From: an uncultured virus (IMG/VR IMGVR_UViG_3300030099_002957)
Taxonomy: Duplodnaviria; Heunggongvirae; Uroviricota; Caudoviricetes
Direction: 5' to 3' (one strand)
DNA: 24,088 nt
IMG/VR virus record: IMGVR_UViG_3300030099_002957
Notes under the pieces: model-generated
Told to the model about the DNA's origin: nothing
Database searches by the model: none
What the model saw: only the letters and a program-made list of their open reading frames with translations
In this document: positions 1-23,965 of the stretch, in pieces
How the letters are laid out: every line of letters begins with the position of its first letter
Numbering within the stretch: position 1 is the first letter of the stretch
Position numbers and translations under genes: made by a program

Positions 1-2967
1 ATAGTTAAGTCTTTAAAAAATGACATAGAAACTATAAACCAAAGATTGGGGGAGAACATAGATGTATTAAAAGATGGTAGTCCTAACCCAAACTACTTAT
101 CAGACATAGATCTAAATGAGTTGTTAAAAGATTTGACTTTCTATCAATCAATTGTAGAGCTACATGATTATGTAGATTACATGAAAAATACCAATAAAGA
201 GAAGTATGAAGAGTATAGAGTGTTAAGAGATAGATTAGCAGGGTTTTTAGCACAAACAATAACACAGGTAGAAGGTAAGATATTAGAAAGAATAAACGAC
301 AAGGCAATGGAGAGGGGTGTACAGGGTATAAAAAGCTTTAACGTTGATGTAAATTGGATGACCTCTAACTTTGTAAACCTATCTAAACAAAATAATCCCT
401 ACCTAAGAAATCTATGGGAGATAATGGATGAGCTTAATTTTACTAAACGTAAACTAGTAAAAAATAAAGCTGAAGAAATACAAAGAGTGCAAGATGCGTT
501 TGTAGGTAACCGTGGTATAAAAGCTTTTGATGATATACTAAACGAAGACGGAACATTTAAATCTAAATTCTCTAAAGAGTTTTATGCGGCAAGATCTAAA
601 GCACTACAAAGCGGAGACTATACTTGGTTTAATTTGGAAAATGGTAATGTAGTTATAGACGAAAATTATTATAAAAAGAAATACAAAGAGTTTAGAGCAG
701 GCAAACTAAAAGCTTTACAGGCAAAGTTTAAAGACAATCAAGCAGCAATAAATAGAGAAATAAAAAAATGGGAACTAGCACATGATGTAAAGAACCACAT
801 GAATACAGCTGCAATAAACAAAGGAGGTCAGTACTTTTTGAGGCCAGCAGAAAAATGGATAAGTGAGGATTATAAGAAAATACAAAACACACCAGAAATA
901 AAAGAATTTTATGATTTGTATATGAAAACCGTACAAGAGGTAGAAGAAATGTATGGTGAAAGATTGGGACCTAACTTTACAGCTGAGGTTCATAAAGGAT
1001 TTGTTGAGTCTGCATATGTTAATGGAACTATAAGTGAAGGTATTGATAGCGGTATAGAACATTTACAAATTAGAGAACATGATTTAACATATGGTATAAG
1101 AGACGAAAATACAGGGAGACTAGTAAAACAAATACCTAAACTATATATAAGACCTATAAGAGATAAAAATGGTAATATAGACCCATCATTAAAAACTAGA
1201 GATTTAGGTAAAGGGCTTTTGTTATTATATAATGCAGCTGTAGATTACCAACTTAAATCACAGGTTCTACCAGAAATACAAGGTATGGAAGCTATACTTA
1301 GCAGTAAAAAAGCAATTGAGGTAGAGTCTACAGATAGTTTTGGTAACATTTTAACTAACGCTAAAAACATATATAAAAAATATTCAGAGCAACCAGAAAA
1401 CTTATATAAAACGTATCAAAGATTTGTAGATGCATACATATATGGTACAGAATTAGACTCTAAAGATCTTAAGATAGGAAGTAAAAGTATTAGCCTAAGT
1501 AGTCAAAAGTCTATATTAGGATTAAAAAACTTACACTCGATCACACAATTAGGTCTTAAAGCTCCCGTAGCATTTGGAGCGTTTATAGCTGGTATGGTTG
1601 GTTTACAGTACGAAGCATCTAAAGGATCTTTTATAACTAAAAAGAATTTAAACAAAGCTAGAGCAGCACTTATAAAAGCAGACCCTAAAATGAGAGCTTT
1701 AGTAGAACATTTAGAATACTACCAAAAAGATGATGCAGAGTCTAGAGCACAGAGGTTGTCAGCTCAGTATGCAACAAGACATTTAACAAATGACAAGTGG
1801 TTTGCATTTTTATCTACAGCTGATAGAGGTATAGATGCTATAGCAATATACGCAACAGCTTTAAATATGGGTGTTGATGAAAATGGAAATGTAAAAAGAT
1901 TAGAGTTTTTACCTGAAGGATCTAAAAACATTGTAGAATTAATGGAACTTACAGAAAATCCATTATGGAGAGGAACCACAACTAATGTAGCAGATGCGGC
2001 AGTAGATAGATATAAAGTTAACATTGAAGGGTTATCGGACCAGGGTCAAAGAAAATTAAGGAATGTAGGAAGAGAAATATCGAATAAAGTGAAGGGTACA
2101 ATGAGTTCAGAAGATAAAGTATTGTACAATAGTAATTTCTTTTTAAGATTAATGATGCACTACAAGTCTTGGTTGCCTGGTGTAGCGCTAGCTAGATTTG
2201 GAAAAACAAAGTATAATAATATACTAGAAACATTTGATGAAGGTACATGGACAAGTGTATTTAGTAATATGGGAATCTCTAAAGATTTAACCGCACCTGA
2301 AGCACTAGATACAGAAATACACCTATTAGAATATGTTAAGTCGATTGGTTTAGACCTAGCTAAAATAGGAGTTGATGTAGTTACCTTTGGCTATTTTAAT
2401 TTATCACAACCAAAAGAAGATTTTGCAAGAGCTAAGTTTGATTTATGGGCAGCTAACAACGCTACTAATCCTCAATTTGAAGAGAAATTAAAAGATAAAG
2501 ATGCTAGAGAAGAGCTATTCCAAGAGTTTATAAAAATGAAACAAGGAAATATTAAAGCTGTTCTTACAGAACTAAGAGCTAGTTTAGCATTTTTCTTGAT
2601 GTTAGCGGCACTGGGTGGTGATGAAGATAAAGATGGGAAAACAGATATTAGACAAACATATCTTGGTAGAAAATTCCATAATATAATGGAAAGAGCATCT
2701 AGAGAAACTAGAGTATTTACAAATCCAAGAGGATTCTTTGAGGGAGGGAGAGCTACAGGTATACCATTGTTAAGTTTAGGTAAACAAATAGCTGACTTAG
2801 CAGGTAACACTATAGATGAAACTGCAGATATTATAACAGGAGAAGAACCTTACACTGAAAGAGATAGAGCAGAAAGATTTTACTACACATTTAAACTTAC
2901 TCCGGGGTTAAACGCAATTACAAAAGCAGTCGAGTTCTTCCCACAACAAAAATATGAAAGATACTAA
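1..2967 (+). CDS. C-terminal part of a giant phage protein, probably a virion cargo/ejection protein (5' truncated by window edge)
   Basis: Frame +1 is open from base 1 (IVKSLKNDIETINQRL...), so the TTG at 46 is unlikely to be the true start. Helical-looking, charged protein with hydrophobic segments (APVAFGAFIAGMVGL; ASLAFFLMLAALGG). Lies opposite the replication module, as the giant cargo/vRNAP genes of crAss-like phages do. Function inferred. Confidence 0.6.
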   Translation: MVKSLKNDIETINQRLGENIDVLKDGSPNPNYLSDIDLNELLKDLTFYQSIVELHDYVDYMKNTNKEKYEEYRVLRDRLAGFLAQTITQVEGKILERINDKAMERGVQGIKSFNVDVNWMTSNFVNLSKQNNPYLRNLWEIMDELNFTKRKLVKNKAEEIQRVQDAFVGNRGIKAFDDILNEDGTFKSKFSKEFYAARSKALQSGDYTWFNLENGNVVIDENYYKKKYKEFRAGKLKALQAKFKDNQAAINREIKKWELAHDVKNHMNTAAINKGGQYFLRPAEKWISEDYKKIQNTPEIKEFYDLYMKTVQEVEEMYGERLGPNFTAEVHKGFVESAYVNGTISEGIDSGIEHLQIREHDLTYGIRDENTGRLVKQIPKLYIRPIRDKNGNIDPSLKTRDLGKGLLLLYNAAVDYQLKSQVLPEIQGMEAILSSKKAIEVESTDSFGNILTNAKNIYKKYSEQPENLYKTYQRFVDAYIYGTELDSKDLKIGSKSISLSSQKSILGLKNLHSITQLGLKAPVAFGAFIAGMVGLQYEASKGSFITKKNLNKARAALIKADPKMRALVEHLEYYQKDDAESRAQRLSAQYATRHLTNDKWFAFLSTADRGIDAIAIYATALNMGVDENGNVKRLEFLPEGSKNIVELMELTENPLWRGTTTNVADAAVDRYKVNIEGLSDQGQRKLRNVGREISNKVKGTMSSEDKVLYNSNFFLRLMMHYKSWLPGVALARFGKTKYNNILETFDEGTWTSVFSNMGISKDLTAPEALDTEIHLLEYVKSIGLDLAKIGVDVVTFGYFNLSQPKEDFARAKFDLWAANNATNPQFEEKLKDKDAREELFQEFIKMKQGNIKAVLTELRASLAFFLMLAALGGDEDKDGKTDIRQTYLGRKFHNIMERASRETRVFTNPRGFFEGGRATGIPLLSLGKQIADLAGNTIDETADIITGEEPYTERDRAERFYYTFKLTPGLNAITKAVEFFPQQKYERY

Positions 2968-2971
2968 AATG

Positions 2972-3006
2972 AAAAAGGGGAACCATAAGGCTCCCCTTTA
3001 ATTTTT
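2972..3006. terminator. Bidirectional intrinsic terminator
   Basis: AAAGGGGA-ACCATAAGGC-TCCCCTTT hairpin flanked by A-tract and T-rich tract, between convergent genes. Confidence 0.8.
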
Positions 3007-3030
3007 ATGATGGCCATATAACTACCAACA

Positions 3031-3408
3031 TCACATTGACATTTTAAGCAATAATAAATAACCAATTAAATCATCGACAGTATCTTCTGTCTTATCATTA
3101 ATTCCTTTGTTACTTATTCTAGCTAACTTGTCATCTATTCTAGCACATATAGCTTCAGTAGCATTTAACTTACTAAATATATTAGTAGGATTAAGCGCTG
3201 TGTTACCATAAGCTTTATTTTTAGTTTTTAACAGATCAGTTATAGCTTTAACTTCTATATCTAATTTCTCATCAAAAGAGAGACGTGCTCCTTTATTTCT
3301 GTCAAAATCATAATAATAATGGCTGTGTGTGCTGTTCAAAGAATATGGAGTATTAAACTCCATACCCTCTGGGACTGACATTTTTATATCTTTCTTTTCT
3401 TTTTTCAT
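3031..3408 (-). CDS. DUF1599 / nucleotide-modification-associated domain 1-like protein (all-alpha NTP pyrophosphatase-like)
   Basis: Motifs KNKAYGN, ARIDDKLARI and EDTVDDLIGY are typical of this family. Confidence 0.7.
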   Translation of the reverse strand: MKKEKKDIKMSVPEGMEFNTPYSLNSTHSHYYYDFDRNKGARLSFDEKLDIEVKAITDLLKTKNKAYGNTALNPTNIFSKLNATEAICARIDDKLARISNKGINDKTEDTVDDLIGYLLLLKMSM

Positions 3409-18900: not shown

Positions 18901-20790
18901 TTATTTTTCCCAGCAGTTACTAACTGATACCTCAGCTTTTAACAAACCGTTCGTTACTATCTCTAGTGCAGCCTCCTCCATCATTCTTTGCATGTTGTGT
19001 GTCCAATCAGATAAATAATCGTTTCTACATATTGTATCTATCTGATCATGCACAGTCATGACTAGCTTGACAGGCAGGTCAAATTGATTGATATGATTAC
19101 GCATCAATATCAACGCTTTCTTAGTCATATCTGCGCTAGCTCCCTGTATAGGTGTGTTTTTAGATGCACGTTCAATACTACCTAGCTCCATAGATGATGA
19201 CTTGTTATCCCATATTCTAGGATACCAGTTAGTAAACCATCTACGTCTGTTATAAGGAGGAAATGTTTTTATATACCCATATTTCTTACCAAAATTACCT
19301 AGCTTCTCCAAAAATCCTTTAATTGATGGAAAAGCTGTAAAATACTTTTCAATAAGTAATTTAGCATCGTCAACAGAAATGTTGAGAGTGTCTGCAAGTT
19401 TATGAGGACCCATGCCATAAGCCAGGCCAAAATTAATAGTTTTAACATTATTTCTTAGTTTTTTGTGGGAAGGACAATTGCACTTTTGCTTACGACTAAA
19501 ATAAGCACAATCGTCTTCACCACTATTTAACCACTGATCACCATAGACTAACTCAGCACACGTGGAGTGTAGGTCTTCACCATTCTTTAACGCCTCAATC
19601 CATACAGGATCTTTAGAACCAAATGCAATAACATTTAACTCTTGACTAGAATAGTCAGCCGAAACAAAACTCCAACCATCGGGTGCAGTGAAGCAATTCC
19701 TAAAACTATTATCAGCAGGTATTTGCTGCATGTTAGGCTTGCTACTACTTACACGGCCGGTGTCTAATATTTGATGAAAACTAGTATGTATTCTTTTATC
19801 AGAAGCTAGATTCTTAAAAAATGCATCACCATAAGATGTACACAGTTTCATAGCCTCCTTGTATTTTACATACTTGTCTATTAGTGGATATTTAAATCTG
19901 TGTTTGTACATCTGTTTACCATTTACATTATCTAAATCAGGTACAATACACTGAAACACCTCTAGCACTTGCTTTGGTGATGTCCATTTTACATCTACAT
20001 CTCTAAGCTCTTCTACAGGTGTAAACATGTCTGCTTGTATGTATTTAGCCACAAACTTTTGTAATCTGTGATCCATCTTAACCATGTTATCTAATGTAGA
20101 CATCAAAGCATCAGCTTTACTTGTATTTAAACTTTCAAGCTCTCTCCATGCTTCTGTATCTAAATCTAAGCCATTGTACTCCATGTCAGCAAAAGCCTTT
20201 ACTACCTCGTTTTCTAGTTTAACAACATTGTGCAGTTTATATTTATCTATATCTGCTTGTTGTAGCTCTTTTATTTTACATAGGTATTCTACATCCTTTG
20301 CACCATAGATTATCTGATCATCTGTAAAAGGATGTCCATGTAAATCTATAAACAAGTTTCTAACCTCCTTGTTTAGCTCTACATTTAAATATCTTTTACA
20401 TAAATCTTTTAATCCATAACCTAGAGATTTACCACAGCTTATAATTAACTCTACAAGAAATGTATCATAAATACCTTCACAGGTTATATTAGCCCATTTT
20501 TTAATAAACTTGTAATCAAACTTAGCATTGTGAAATATCTTTACAATATCATTTGATTCTAATATCTCTCGTAAAGGCTCTATACTTACAAATCTTGTAT
20601 CTATAATATATTGATTATTAGTATCACCTATCTGAAACATTATCATCTTTTTACATGTAAAGTCAAATCCTTCTGTCTCCGTGTCTACACCCAAAACTTT
20701 CTTAGTTTTACAATATTCTACTACATCATCTATAGTAGCATCTGTAAAGTTTGCGTTTAAACTCTTAGTGTTACTAATAAAGTATATCAT
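18901..20790 (-). CDS. polA: Family A DNA polymerase with 3'-5' exonuclease (no 5'-3' exonuclease domain)
   Basis: Exo motifs DTET, HNAKFD, YGAKD; TGRVSS..PNMQQIP; motif A DYSSQEL; motif B KTINFGLAYG; NTPIQG; motif C VHDQI. Confidence 0.96.
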   Translation of the reverse strand: MIYFISNTKSLNANFTDATIDDVVEYCKTKKVLGVDTETEGFDFTCKKMIMFQIGDTNNQYIIDTRFVSIEPLREILESNDIVKIFHNAKFDYKFIKKWANITCEGIYDTFLVELIISCGKSLGYGLKDLCKRYLNVELNKEVRNLFIDLHGHPFTDDQIIYGAKDVEYLCKIKELQQADIDKYKLHNVVKLENEVVKAFADMEYNGLDLDTEAWRELESLNTSKADALMSTLDNMVKMDHRLQKFVAKYIQADMFTPVEELRDVDVKWTSPKQVLEVFQCIVPDLDNVNGKQMYKHRFKYPLIDKYVKYKEAMKLCTSYGDAFFKNLASDKRIHTSFHQILDTGRVSSSKPNMQQIPADNSFRNCFTAPDGWSFVSADYSSQELNVIAFGSKDPVWIEALKNGEDLHSTCAELVYGDQWLNSGEDDCAYFSRKQKCNCPSHKKLRNNVKTINFGLAYGMGPHKLADTLNISVDDAKLLIEKYFTAFPSIKGFLEKLGNFGKKYGYIKTFPPYNRRRWFTNWYPRIWDNKSSSMELGSIERASKNTPIQGASADMTKKALILMRNHINQFDLPVKLVMTVHDQIDTICRNDYLSDWTHNMQRMMEEAALEIVTNGLLKAEVSVSNCWEK

Positions 20791-21302: not shown

Positions 21303-21938
21303 TTACATGCCTACTCCCAATACCTCAACCTCATCTGCTGTTACACCTGTATTAGGTTTTACAGTAGTTTGAAGGCTAGTATCAGAAGCTAGAAATACAT
21401 GTGCAGGATTACTACCTTTTGGTAATAAATCTACATATGAGTTTCTAAATATATGCTGACCTTTGTGTAAGATCGCATCTCCTCCTTTACCTGCTCTTTT
21501 ACAAAAATGCTCAACTACATCCAATCCGTTATCCTCTGCATAGTCTTTCTGTGATTTTGTAGGCTCTAGTGTCTCCTCAAGTCTAACTCTAAAGAATACG
21601 TTGTTAAATGTAGGATTTAATATATTCAAATCCATCATCTCAACTTTTTTTCCGTTAGCTTTCTCTCCCAAATACCAGTCACCATCATCTCCAAAGTTTG
21701 TTTTAAATATTTTAGATGCATCTGCTATCTCAGCAACAGCCCAACCTCTAGCTGCTCCAGAGCTAAATCTATTATCACTAGCATTTAATGCTGTTAGTGC
21801 AGACATTGGTCTATCTTTTGATGTAACTTTCTCAGCAAACTCAAGCTGTATTTTGTCTGTTGATGTTTTGTATGCTTTTGTTATCATACATTCTCCTACT
21901 TTTAATGTGTTTAAGTCACCACTGTTTAATTCATTCAT
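21303..21938 (-). CDS. Hypothetical protein (211 aa)
   Basis: Long ORF preceded by the AATCAATTAAAC leader motif. Confidence 0.75.
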   Translation of the reverse strand: MNELNSGDLNTLKVGECMITKAYKTSTDKIQLEFAEKVTSKDRPMSALTALNASDNRFSSGAARGWAVAEIADASKIFKTNFGDDGDWYLGEKANGKKVEMMDLNILNPTFNNVFFRVRLEETLEPTKSQKDYAEDNGLDVVEHFCKRAGKGGDAILHKGQHIFRNSYVDLLPKGSNPAHVFLASDTSLQTTVKPNTGVTADEVEVLGVGM

Positions 21939-21956
21939 GTTTAATTGATTTAATTA

Positions 21957-22217
21957 TTAATAATTGTTATTGATTCTATATTCTTCAAGCTCCTTATTAG
22001 TATGTTCTGTAGTATCTACAGGATTCTCCCAATAAAATAGCTCTGGATGTACATCTTTTACATTATGTGTACAACTAGTACACTCAGCAATAAAATGTAT
22101 TGCATCCATCTTGTCTGTAAAGGTTTTGATACGTGACGATGTAATCTCATCACGATGACAGTCATGATTACCTTTGGAATCACAACCGTAGATAATTTTA
22201 ATCTCTTTCATAGGCAT
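21957..22217 (-). CDS. Hypothetical Cys/His-containing protein (86 aa)
   Basis: ORF preceded by the AATCAATTAAAC leader motif. Confidence 0.65.
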   Translation of the reverse strand: MPMKEIKIIYGCDSKGNHDCHRDEITSSRIKTFTDKMDAIHFIAECTSCTHNVKDVHPELFYWENPVDTTEHTNKELEEYRINNNY

Positions 22218-22228
22218 GTTTAATTGAT

Positions 22229-22339
22229 TTAGTTAATAATATGGTTTTCTATAAGTAATGCAACAATGATAAGTAATATCCCACAATAACTGTAGGATAA
22301 TACTCTCATTGAATATTTGTAACTATCATTTTTATACAT
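22229..22339 (-). CDS. Small hydrophobic peptide (36 aa), absent from the ORF track
   Basis: MYKNDSYKYSMRVLSYSYCGILLIIVALLIENHIIN*; TGATG coupling to the upstream gene; fills the gap. Confidence 0.55.
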   Translation of the reverse strand: MYKNDSYKYSMRVLSYSYCGILLIIVALLIENHIIN

Positions 22340-22566
22340 CATTTTACTTCATTGTCTTTCATCATCTTCTCCATTTCAACGTATAGTTTTTCATAGTCTT
22401 GCTCAAGAGCTTTGTTCTTTTCTTTTAACTCAATAATCTCAAGTTTATATTGAACAGCTTCTGTTGTTAGTCTGTCAACATCTTGCAATGCTCTTGTTAA
22501 TTCTAGATTCTTAGTTCTAATTTTTTGTTCTTCATCATAATTGATGTTGTTAATTGGTAGTGCCAT
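22339..22566 (-). CDS. Coiled-coil protein (75 aa)
   Basis: Heptad-like Leu/Glu/Lys pattern; first gene downstream of the twister ribozyme. Confidence 0.7.
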   Translation of the reverse strand: MALPINNINYDEEQKIRTKNLELTRALQDVDRLTTEAVQYKLEIIELKEKNKALEQDYEKLYVEMEKMMKDNEVK

Positions 22567-23562
22567 GTTTAATTAATTTTAGTTAATATTTTAGCTAATT
22601 GTGCTCACTCTGTATTTTCACGGGCTTGTGACCGTCCTTGGCTACATTAAGCACGAATTAGGGGATTACAAGTCCCAAAGTAATACCATCAGGTTTTTAC
22701 ACCTGTAAATCTCGATACATATTATACATCTCCCAATGTATTCTTATAATTACTAATCCACTTGGACGTCATAATTACATCAAATAATCTACTACAGATT
22801 AAAATATACTATCATCAGTCAAAGGCGTGACATCATAGATAGTTTAGTATCATACTAACAATCAGTTTGTTTTTACTTAATTATTAGTTATTACTTTAGA
22901 TGTATCCAACTGTTAAGTTAGTGAAGCTATAACATTTGTTATAACCTATTCGTCTGGATGACTATACATCTCTGTCCACTCTTGCTAGTACAAGTGTTAA
23001 CGACAGTTCTAATTCTAAGGAGTCTTGCAATACTCCCTACGCTATTCTGTTCTGGTCTCTATTACCGAGTGTGGTAGCCAGTTCCCCTATTTATCCACTT
23101 TTTACTATTAGTCTCCTGTAAGGACACACTAATAGTCATATTTAAAATAAAGAATAGTCCACATGCCTTACGGTTTACCACTGCAGGTTGTTATCCAAGA
23201 CGTTCTACTATTCTTTATTTGTGTTTAGTTAATGTTTAGGTTAAAAACTATCATGAGTGTCTTAGGTAATTATTTAGACTATTAGATACACACGACCTAA
23301 CCAAGACCATTACCCTTGGATCTCTCATGATAGTTATTATAAAACAACAACAGTAAGTTTACTACATGTTCTAGGTGAATATTAGAATATTCGATAAGTT
23401 TTAAATGTGGTTTCATCATCAGAACACTCCACTTTACCTTACCTGTTGTTGTTATAATGCAACCGTTGCCTCTATCTCTGGTCGGTTAACTACTAAGCAC
23501 CAACTAGTATTTATGCTTTTCGTGATTATTATAAGTTGCATTTGATTAGAAATGAACAGTTT
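22567..23562 (-). ncRNA. Array of tandem structured RNA domains (about 12 stem-loop units)
   Basis: No ORF of 60 aa or more. Consecutive inverted repeats with closing stems of up to 14 bp and short A/U linkers; most wobble pairs are G-U on the - strand; contains a twister ribozyme. Confidence 0.7.
22595..22661 (-). ncRNA. Twister self-cleaving ribozyme, type P1 (core 22601..22654)
   Basis: - strand GUGCU UAA UGUA GCC AAGG ACGGUCACAAGCCCGU GAAAA UACA GAG UGAGCAC aligns element by element with the rice twister as recalled (CCGCC UAA CACU GCC AAUG CCGGUCCCAAGCCCGG AUAAA AGUG GAG GGGGCGG), with compensatory changes. Confidence 0.95.
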
Positions 23563-23787
23563 CTACACTTGTTCAGGTGTTATTATTTTGTAACTATGGT
23601 TGTCCCAGAGTTTACGACTACATCTTCTTACAAGTGCAGTTGTTCTTCCTTCTAATGGAGTTTCATGTACATATTCTACAAACTTGTCATGTTTTTTAAC
23701 AAGTATACAATTAGATCTTCCAGACTCCATGTTAATTATTATACATCCTTCATTTCCTAAAGAGTATTCATTCATATTTATTCTCAT
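23563..23787 (-). CDS. Hypothetical protein (74 aa)
   Basis: ORF with A-rich leader immediately upstream of the RNA array. Confidence 0.6.
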   Translation of the reverse strand: MRINMNEYSLGNEGCIIINMESGRSNCILVKKHDKFVEYVHETPLEGRTTALVRRCSRKLWDNHSYKIITPEQV

Positions 23788-23938
23788 AGTGTTATATTGT
23801 ATTATATTAGTATTCTAGTTAATTGTCAAATTGTGTAGAAAAGTGGTGAATGTGATGTGGTACACACACTAACGAACAGTGTAATATACCACCCCACCCA
23901 TAGATTAGTAACAACATTGTTACAATCCCCACCTATAT

Positions 23939-23965
23939 AAAAAAAAGAAGAAGTCCTTAGACTTC
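23939..23965 (-). terminator. Intrinsic terminator overlapping a stop codon
   Basis: - strand GAAGUC-UAAG-GACUUC followed by UUCUUUUUUUU. Confidence 0.7.

Follow-up and report, generated by a model that had tools for sequence, protein, structure and literature searches.

The 24,088-nucleotide (nt) stretch of DNA analysed here (hereafter the window), from an uncultured virus of the Caudoviricetes (IMG/VR record IMGVR_UViG_3300030099_002957), carries on its minus strand at 22654-22601 a 54-nt sequence that is almost certainly a functional, minimal type-P1 twister ribozyme lacking stem P3, its cleavage being predicted from family membership. By itself this ribozyme is an ordinary new member of the twister family. 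Judged from sequence and alignment, it is not a free-standing leader element but the built-in 3' end of a multi-helix RNA domain of ~390 nt, and what makes a new variant is its fusion to this structured, uncatalogued RNA. The account is carried by membership of the ribozyme in the twister family (by covariance model and by covariation), by its physical and evolutionary coupling to the structured RNA and by an insertion or deletion that distinguishes the window from a close relative.

A type-P1 twister without P3

The elements of the ribozyme are listed below (coordinates are those of the window; paired strands are written in the 5' to 3' direction of the minus strand).

22601..22654, minus: type-P1 twister without P3 (Rfam RF03160, 54.8 bits, full model; P1 covariation)
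22654-22650 with 22605-22601, minus: P1, GUGCU with AGCAC
22648..22649, minus: predicted scissile bond U22649/A22648 (position of UAA in the Rfam alignment)
22611..22646, minus: span from P2 inward, containing T2, P4 and loop L4 (22631-22624)
22646-22643 with 22614-22611, minus: P2, UGUA with UACA
22635-22632 with 22623-22620, minus: P4, ACGG with CCGU, loop UCACAAGC
22606..22630, minus: T1 pseudoknot, C22630-G22606 and A22629-U22607
22642-22641 with 22625-22624, minus: T2 pseudoknot, G22642-C22624 and C22641-G22625

A preliminary description of this DNA had listed P1, the UAA, P2, P4 and a loop CAC complementary to GUG, and had called the whole an intact type-P1 twister. All of these elements were found on the minus strand where it had placed them, loop CAC (22630-22628) facing GUG (22608-22606), which is located after GAG. 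The stems follow the type-P1 order of P1, P2 and P4 with both ends in P1, loop L4 pairs with the strand between P2 and P1 (T1), and the GC after P2 pairs with the GC of L4 (T2). The comparison with the Rfam twister-P1 covariance model that the description had proposed gave a match, though under the gathering score: RF03160 aligned end to end (model positions 1-68) at 22653..22602 on the minus strand with 54.8 bits, and E-values of 5.9e-10 (24-kb window, both strands) and 8.6e-12 (351 nt). The conserved twister bases were all kept in this alignment (UAA, the GCC after P2, CGGUC.CAAGCCCG in P4 and L4, AAA, and GAG) and the stems covary among relatives, so that the twister is intact as described. 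Departures from conserved bases are confined to the T1 pair, which covaries, and to the variable base preceding AAA, and the one major difference from the model is that the optional P3 stem is deleted. For the 67-nt stretch 22661-22595 the minimum-free-energy fold consists of P1, P2 and P4 (-18.7 kcal/mol; z -3.25) and was equalled by 2 of 200 shuffles.

When the window was scanned at the curated (gathering) thresholds of Rfam there was no match, the RF03160 cut-off being 67.2 bits against the 54.8 bits obtained. The twister is missed at this threshold because the optional P3 stem, which according to PMC6154101 is present in 78% of annotated twisters, is absent. A strict twister-core pattern was found in at least 117 stretches of viral contigs, and 20 fetched loci (10 with and 10 without P3) were chosen for Rfam scans, whereas 106 parsed, non-identical cores among the matches listed formed the phage twister comparison set; the phage twister counts below, including those of the Rfam scans, likewise refer to the matches listed. 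P3 was absent from 53 of the 106 cores. The P3-less twisters all scored 53.5-59.5 bits (10/10) and those bearing P3 scored 54.6-68.1 bits, with only two of ten reaching 67.2. Scores were thus sub-threshold in 18 of the 20 other phage twisters tested, and the Rfam twister-P1 threshold misses most of them.

Twister ribozymes cleave between U and A, as described in PMC6154101, and U precedes AA in 105 of the 106 parsed phage twisters. Since the UAA falls at 22649-22647 in the Rfam alignment, the cut is predicted at 22649/22648, in agreement with the preliminary description. The 5' product would end in ...GUGCUU with a 2',3'-cyclic phosphate and the 3' product would begin at A22648 with a 5'-OH. 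The distance from A22648 to the ATG at 22566 is 82 nt, close to the ~80 nt that had been estimated.

Covariation within the twister was evident both in the phage cores and in an alignment (A6) of 21 full-length members of the module composed of the RNA domain and its twister. In T1 the variable base of L4 is complementary to the first base after GAG in 104 of the 106 phage cores, the pairs being A:U in 83, C:G in 10, U:A in 6, G:C in 5 and G-U in 1, with 1 mismatch; the CA/UG of the window, having the A:U pair, is therefore the commonest phage form. T2 is complementary and invariant in all 21 aligned members, and the lone compensatory change, from GC..GC to AC..GU (G-C to A-U), is that of the relative L123; hence covariation support for T2 is thin. 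Among syntenic relatives P1 occurs as UGCU/AGCA and as UGUU/GACA. P2 has compensatory changes at three of its four pairs in alignment A6, five complementary forms among syntenic relatives and 14 pair types among the 106 phage twisters. P4 changes from ACGG/CCGU to CUGG/CCAG in 10 of the 21 members and has four complementary forms among syntenic relatives. The divergent syntenic twister of L123 (L123:696-750; 34.2 bits) is altered in both P2 and P4 in addition to its compensatory A-U pair in T2, and in this locus a segment resembling window positions 23459-23331 lies downstream of the twister rather than upstream.

The structured RNA domain and its closing helix

The domain that precedes the twister on the same strand has the following parts.

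22655..23044, minus: structured non-coding RNA domain, ~390 nt, of no known family (identity, RNAalifold and covariation)
23009..23036, minus: 5' hairpin (23036-23032 with 23023-23019) and 5' strand of the closing helix, GAAUUAG (23015-23009)
22662..22676, minus: small hairpin, GGGA-loop-UCCC, adjoining the closing helix, in the P0 position
22655..22661, minus: CUAAUUC, 3' strand of the closing helix of the domain, directly abutting P1

The domain has 79-81% nucleotide identity to those of three relatives (L125, L140 and L155), the 211-amino-acid (aa) proteins of which are only 72, 44 and 32% identical to that of the window. RNAalifold gave a consensus of 119 pairs for alignment A6, and a curated structure of 121 pairs, which includes two pseudoknots, was used for the covariation counts. 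Over these 121 pairs 99.1% of the alignment cells were paired, versus 91.5 +/- 0.3% in shuffles, and 40 pairs had changed on both sides, versus 22 +/- 2 in shuffles; in neither measure did any of 500 shuffles reach as high. When the 3' partners were slid by 1-3 columns, 31-43% of the cells remained paired and at most 7 pairs had double changes. The consensus energy (RNAalifold) was -87.0 kcal/mol for the sense strand versus -43.9 kcal/mol for the antisense strand and, as the sense fold is twice as stable, we argue for a function as RNA rather than as DNA. G-U pairs are frequent in the domain alignment and are retained on the gene-sense strand.

Compensatory changes were found at four of the five pairs of the 5' hairpin (helix 1). 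All 21 members have the same loop here, TTGCAAG, which contains the self-complementary hexamer UUGCAA (23030-23025), a candidate kissing-loop or protein site. The hairpin at 22662..22676 has GGAA/UUCC in place of GGGA/UCCC in 10 of the 21 members, and L123 has a different 6-base-pair (bp) hairpin there. A TATAAT at 22726-22721 was considered as a promoter but not accepted, since it forms the 3' arm of a hairpin that covaries, and most relatives have TATAGT there.

The helix that closes the domain, GAAUUAG (23015-23009) with CUAAUUC (22661-22655), spans ~350 nt and occurs in four complementary sequence versions. All seven pairs form in 20 of the 21 sequences and six of seven in the remaining one. 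No spacer separates the helix from P1, and it occupies the place where some twisters have the optional P0 stem. The preliminary description had instead assigned CUAAUU/AAUUAG to an extension of P1, a pairing with 22600-22595 that did not hold in relatives (six pairs in 2 of 21, five in 3 and at most three in 16). Given full pairing with the upstream strand in 20/21 and the rarity of pairing with 22600-22595, we assign CUAAUUC to the closing helix as its 3' strand.

Searches of catalogued RNAs gave no counterpart of the domain. In the window no family of Rfam 15 (which includes ROOL, GOLLD, HEARO, OLE and raiA) matched the domain at E-values up to 1, and a permissive-filter scan of 22640-23110 gave for the domain just a chance snoRNA match (E 1.1). 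When eight other module members were scanned against Rfam, the twister alone was matched. Likewise, blastn of 21900-23900 against 50,697 named phage records returned the twister core only, in two records, and the domain was absent. A full-text literature search, in which reviews were used for twister background, gave no paper on a twister joined to a large marine-phage RNA.

Distribution and genomic setting of the module

With an alignment of the 211-aa protein as bait we collected 41 loci, and 40 of their records were searched with RF03160. A twister was present in 8 of the 40, each 50-920 nt upstream of the 211-aa homologue and on the same strand. All twister-bearing relatives have a stretch of 380-920 nt free of open reading frames (ORFs) before the ribozyme, and these stretches are homologous. 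Hammerhead II and pistol models each matched none of the 40 related records; the control genomes gave no match either, which leaves this negative without weight. A search with a mid-domain motif gave 8 viral and 27 metagenome stretches, which together with the window and the earlier loci made 41 loci and 28 distinct sequences. The twister core lay 222-227 nt downstream of the motif in 24 of these 28 distinct marine sequences. Of the remaining four, two are cut by a contig end and two (L171 and L194) lack the core, the sequence downstream of their motif matches being unlike the module as judged by eye. Hence, in 24 of 26 informative sequences the domain and the twister appear to travel together.

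Twisters were also met in other arrangements. An otherwise unrelated phage (L067:1482-1600, minus strand of the locus) has a near-identical twister (56.2 bits) in which a short helix and a hairpin replace the 390-nt domain, an ATG follows P1 by 12 nt and a tRNA-like element (a partial match to the tmRNA model) lies upstream. Locus L024 has a pistol and a twister 420 nt apart, L033 has three twisters in 1.1 kb, L021 has two twisters and a tRNA, and L006 and L016 have two twisters each.

In the relative L122 a segment that includes the module is missing.

22601..23788, minus: 1188-nt segment (74-aa ORF, spacer, RNA domain and twister) absent from L122 (blastn, alignments)

L122, the 211-aa protein of which is 70% identical, shares with the window the regions upstream of 23789 and from 22600 on. 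There the promoter region is followed at once by the homologous leader and first gene, and the intergenic region is 193 nt versus ~1390 nt in the window. On its 3' side the missing segment ends with the final base of P1, so that the twister marks the exact 3' border of a segment missing from a close relative; the junction is ambiguous by 3 nt, as CAC is found on both sides. In another relative, L121, the segment is present with an unrelated small ORF in place of the 74-aa ORF and with a shorter spacer. The first gene after the module belongs to seven protein clusters among the 21 loci while the module is unchanged. Homologues of the 75-aa ORF that follows it in the window are found after the module in 11 of the 21 loci, and an ATG lies 28-41 nt past P1 in 18 of the 21.

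Parts of 22601-23045 are covered by contigs from metatranscriptome runs of three studies. X12 and X13, both from one study, cover 22731-23037 and 23313-23571, X18 covers 22652-22848 and X17, a 90-95% relative, covers 22601-22752 and 22803-23045. The contig ends at 23037 (X12 and X13) and at 22652 (X18), the latter 3 nt from the predicted cut, were considered as RNA ends and set aside, because an assembly can also break off where strain differences make it branch; parts without coverage were likewise given no weight.

The surroundings of the domain and the twister are as follows.

22567..22600, minus: A/U-rich leader without Shine-Dalgarno sequence, from P1 to the ATG at 22566 (homologous in L122)
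22339..22566, minus: 75-aa coiled-coil-like ORF, first gene after the ribozyme
23045..23562, minus: variable, hairpin-rich, ORF-free spacer between the 74-aa ORF and the domain
23563..23787, minus: 74-aa ORF (ORF list), first item of the segment missing from L122
23801..23829, minus: putative promoter-like TTGACA-17-TATAAT, 12/12 matches (consensus scan)
23950..23965, minus: terminator-like hairpin and T run ending the upstream gene (consensus scan)

The genes from 22566 down to 3031 all lie on the minus strand and form a ~19.5-kb replication cluster, which encodes DNA polymerase A, helicases, primase, exonucleases, a Sak4-like annealing protein and a UDG-family protein, together with the conserved 211-aa protein (21938-21303). 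The preliminary description had placed the ribozyme in the leader of a phage gene cluster; it does lie ahead of this one-strand cluster, but not as a stand-alone element, as it is the 3' terminal module of the ~390-nt RNA. The best named relatives of the DNA polymerase A (18901-20790) are those of crAss-like phages, at ~30% identity, and the source phage is probably crAss-like. Public runs containing the window sequence are marine metagenomes, and the nearest virus record (G001; 55.6 kb, 64% complete) has an identical ribozyme. A Bacteroidota host would be consistent with the absence of Shine-Dalgarno sequences from the genes of the window. The sole match of a prophage search for the host, L197 (a Bacteroidetes metagenome-assembled genome), is an apparent coding region without the module and was discarded as due to chance. 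The 74-, 75-, 86-, 211- and 82-aa proteins matched no Pfam or PHROG family and neither did the 988-aa plus-strand ORF at 1-2967. Weak MicX and DapZ matches at 2946-3044 (minus) consist of a terminator hairpin and U run only; this terminator ends the replication cluster and faces the end of the 988-aa ORF.

No real ORF was found in the ~910 nt upstream of the twister, also under genetic code 4 or with TAG read as Q, and in the spacer (23045..23562) the only ORF of at least 40 aa under these same codes was one of 40 aa. Other genetic codes as an explanation of the ORF-free kilobase were therefore rejected, neither table 4 nor TAG=Q yielding a convincing frame. The spacer contains three long inverted repeats and has only patches in common with L121. 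Within it a hairpin at 23138-23225 (minus) has a 14-bp A/U stem around 48 nt, and these 88 nt are 100% identical in L121, where the neighboring sequences are missing or diverged. No meaningful direct repeats were found around the locus and no tRNAs in the window. The promoter-like region is conserved in L121 and L122. Upstream of it an intergenic block at ~23840-23945 (minus), near-identical in the same two relatives, has two GGTGGGG repeats and the palindrome GTAACAA..TTGTTAC and may serve as an operator or as a promoter region for a phage polymerase.

Proposed function, alternatives and known systems

Reviews place bacterial twisters near phage genes and suggest processing of polycistronic transcripts, the purpose being undefined and the biological role of bacterial and phage twisters still unknown according to the account in PMC6765202. 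In the mechanism we propose, transcription would enter upstream, probably at the promoter-like sequence 23829-23801, and proceed through the 74-aa ORF. The closing helix (23015-23009/22661-22655) would stack directly on P1, and the newly made twister would self-cleave co-transcriptionally at U22649/A22648, as expected of a member of the family. Cleavage would release the folded RNA, which would extend 6 nt past the closing helix and end in a 2',3'-cyclic phosphate, and would leave the replication-operon mRNA with a 5'-OH at a defined position, 82 nt ahead of the first ATG, and freed of the ~1.2 kb of structured upstream RNA that L122 does not carry. We think it rather likely that the twister, cleaving as predicted, is both the maker of the 3' end of the RNA and its uncoupler from the replication operon.

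Several observations weigh against this assignment. The twister scores under the curated Rfam cut-off (54.8 vs 67.2 bits). The module is dispensable, being absent from L122 and from both near-complete relatives (0/2), and among relatives having at least 1 kb of upstream flank only 7 of 33 (counted by hand) have the twister. High nucleotide conservation with sharp borders could also stem from recent horizontal spread instead of function. No promoter or 5' end of the RNA's own was found, only an A/T-rich ..ATA(A/G)C motif before the domain, and the contig of a relative runs through the 5' border of the domain. The RNA-library data are assembled metatranscriptome contigs, which show presence but not strand, ends or level. 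Moreover, one X17 contig crosses the cut site (from 22752 to 22601 and on) and another crosses the 5' border of the domain, and hence uncut precursor or carried-over DNA exists.

The first alternative is that the twister serves the downstream mRNA, the 5'-OH and a compact, pseudoknotted 5' end protecting the operon message from 5'-end-dependent decay and the upstream RNA being a by-product. The cut lies 82 nt upstream of the first ATG, an ATG follows P1 within 28-41 nt in 18 of 21 module loci, and among other phage twisters (of the matches listed) 32 of 60 clusters have an ORF start no more than 60 nt away. Moreover, a 3' fragment can keep both pseudoknots with its 5' end buried, as reported in PMC8782182. 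However, the presence of the twister tracks the upstream domain (24/26 informative) and not any downstream gene (seven clusters), L122 has a homologous operon and the same promoter region without any ribozyme, and the precedent of glmS, as presented in PMC6765202, ties cleavage to degradation. We consider mRNA protection unlikely as the purpose of the module, although stabilization of the downstream message may be a side benefit.

The second alternative is an allosteric ribozyme, in which the domain would sense a ligand, protein or RNA and switch cleavage through the closing helix on P1, thereby timing the replication genes. The lack of a spacer between this helix and P1 and the large size of the domain with its invariant loops would suit such a device, as would the ability of the window CUAAUU to pair either with 23015-23009 or with leader positions 22600-22595, which resembles a possible switch. 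However, no more than 5 of 21 relatives can form 5-6 bp of the alternative pairing, no conserved pairing that would compete with P1, P2 or the pseudoknots was seen in the consensus, and the twister core is complete by itself. To our knowledge the domain also much exceeds known riboswitch aptamers in size. Allosteric control is therefore, in our judgment, quite improbable.

Still less probable is a role of this conserved, ORF-free stretch at the DNA level, for instance as an origin of replication or as a region bound by proteins, with an incidental twister beside it. The stretch is located at the head of replication genes, is A/T-rich with many inverted repeats, and the larger 901-nt spacer folds well on either strand. 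However, the consensus fold has -87.0 kcal/mol in the gene sense against -43.9 kcal/mol in the antisense direction, and this strand asymmetry makes a DNA-level role unlikely; G-U pairs are frequent and kept on the gene-sense strand, a long-range helix over 350 nt joins the ribozyme stem, and the domain is found in RNA libraries. Finally, that the twister is an inactive relic merely resembling the family, as its score under the gathering threshold might suggest, is very doubtful, as every conserved model position is kept, the stems covary rather than decay in relatives, and a sub-threshold score is typical of phage twisters (18/20 among the matches listed).

We return, then, to a twister that would form the 3' end of the RNA and uncouple it from the operon. 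A phage twister is hereby given a concrete anatomical context, being joined to the closing helix of a conserved, covarying and uncatalogued RNA, and a new large structured RNA family is added from marine, probably crAss-like, phages. The purpose of phage twisters becomes testable: is there an RNA of ~400 nt with a cyclic-phosphate end at 22649, and is it the RNA, the replication genes or both that are affected when cleavage is blocked? More boldly, the 390-nt domain and the twister could be one new class of large self-processing phage RNA, a proposal that we regard as a long shot and that has two versions. In the first, the released RNA would form dimers or higher oligomers via the UUGCAA loop and act on host or phage machinery early in infection. 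In the second, the domain would be a sensor that gates twister cleavage and thereby times replication-gene expression. If true, either version would give "orphan" twisters a defined job in abundant marine crAss-like phages.

Compared with known twisters, the window ribozyme resembles RF03160 and the Oryza sativa Osa-1-4 ribozyme, a minimal twister solved without P0, P3 and P5 (PMC6154101), in its P1-P2-P4 order, its UAA cut site, the formation of T1 and T2 by L4 and, like Osa-1-4, the lack of P3. It differs from the RF03160 model in the middle pair of T1 (A-U in the window and C-G in the model) and from a stand-alone minimal twister in that P1 would stack on the closing helix of a 390-nt domain. 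An optional P0 stem is given in PMC6154101 for 21% of annotated twisters, and the window resembles these in having a helix directly 5' of P1. Unlike a P0 hairpin, this helix is long-range, and the structure it encloses, ~350 nt in length, is conserved and covaries. Hairpins directly 5' of P1 are frequent in other phage twisters: in 48 of 83 clusters (among the matches listed) the fold of the 40 nt preceding P1 reaches -10 kcal/mol or lower, versus 155 of 830 random windows from the same loci.

Like ROOL and GOLLD, described as "ornate" phage and prophage RNAs in PMC5737381, the domain is a large structured phage non-coding RNA of obscure function. Unlike them it is smaller (~390 nt), has no sequence or structure match to them and no neighboring tRNA, and has a ribozyme at its 3' end that is structurally joined to the RNA. 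In the phage locus L011 (L011:873-1546, minus) a twister at 1546-1495 lies 14 nt 5' of a full-length ROOL (RF03087, 337 bits, 1480-873), and hence ribozymes can flank large phage RNAs.

The glmS ribozyme, as treated in PMC6765202, likewise cleaves itself within the 5' region of a bacterial-type mRNA, and its cut decides the fate of the downstream message, but it has an unrelated fold, needs a metabolite cofactor and its cleavage leads to decay. For the window ribozyme nothing points to a cofactor, and the fragment upstream of the cut is a conserved RNA in its own right. In engineered 5' insulators of the RiboJ type and in hepatitis delta virus (HDV) ribozymes placed behind transcripts, self-cleavage sets exact RNA ends and insulates the downstream message. 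Those insulators and trimmers are synthetic, whereas the window module would be a natural case doing both together.

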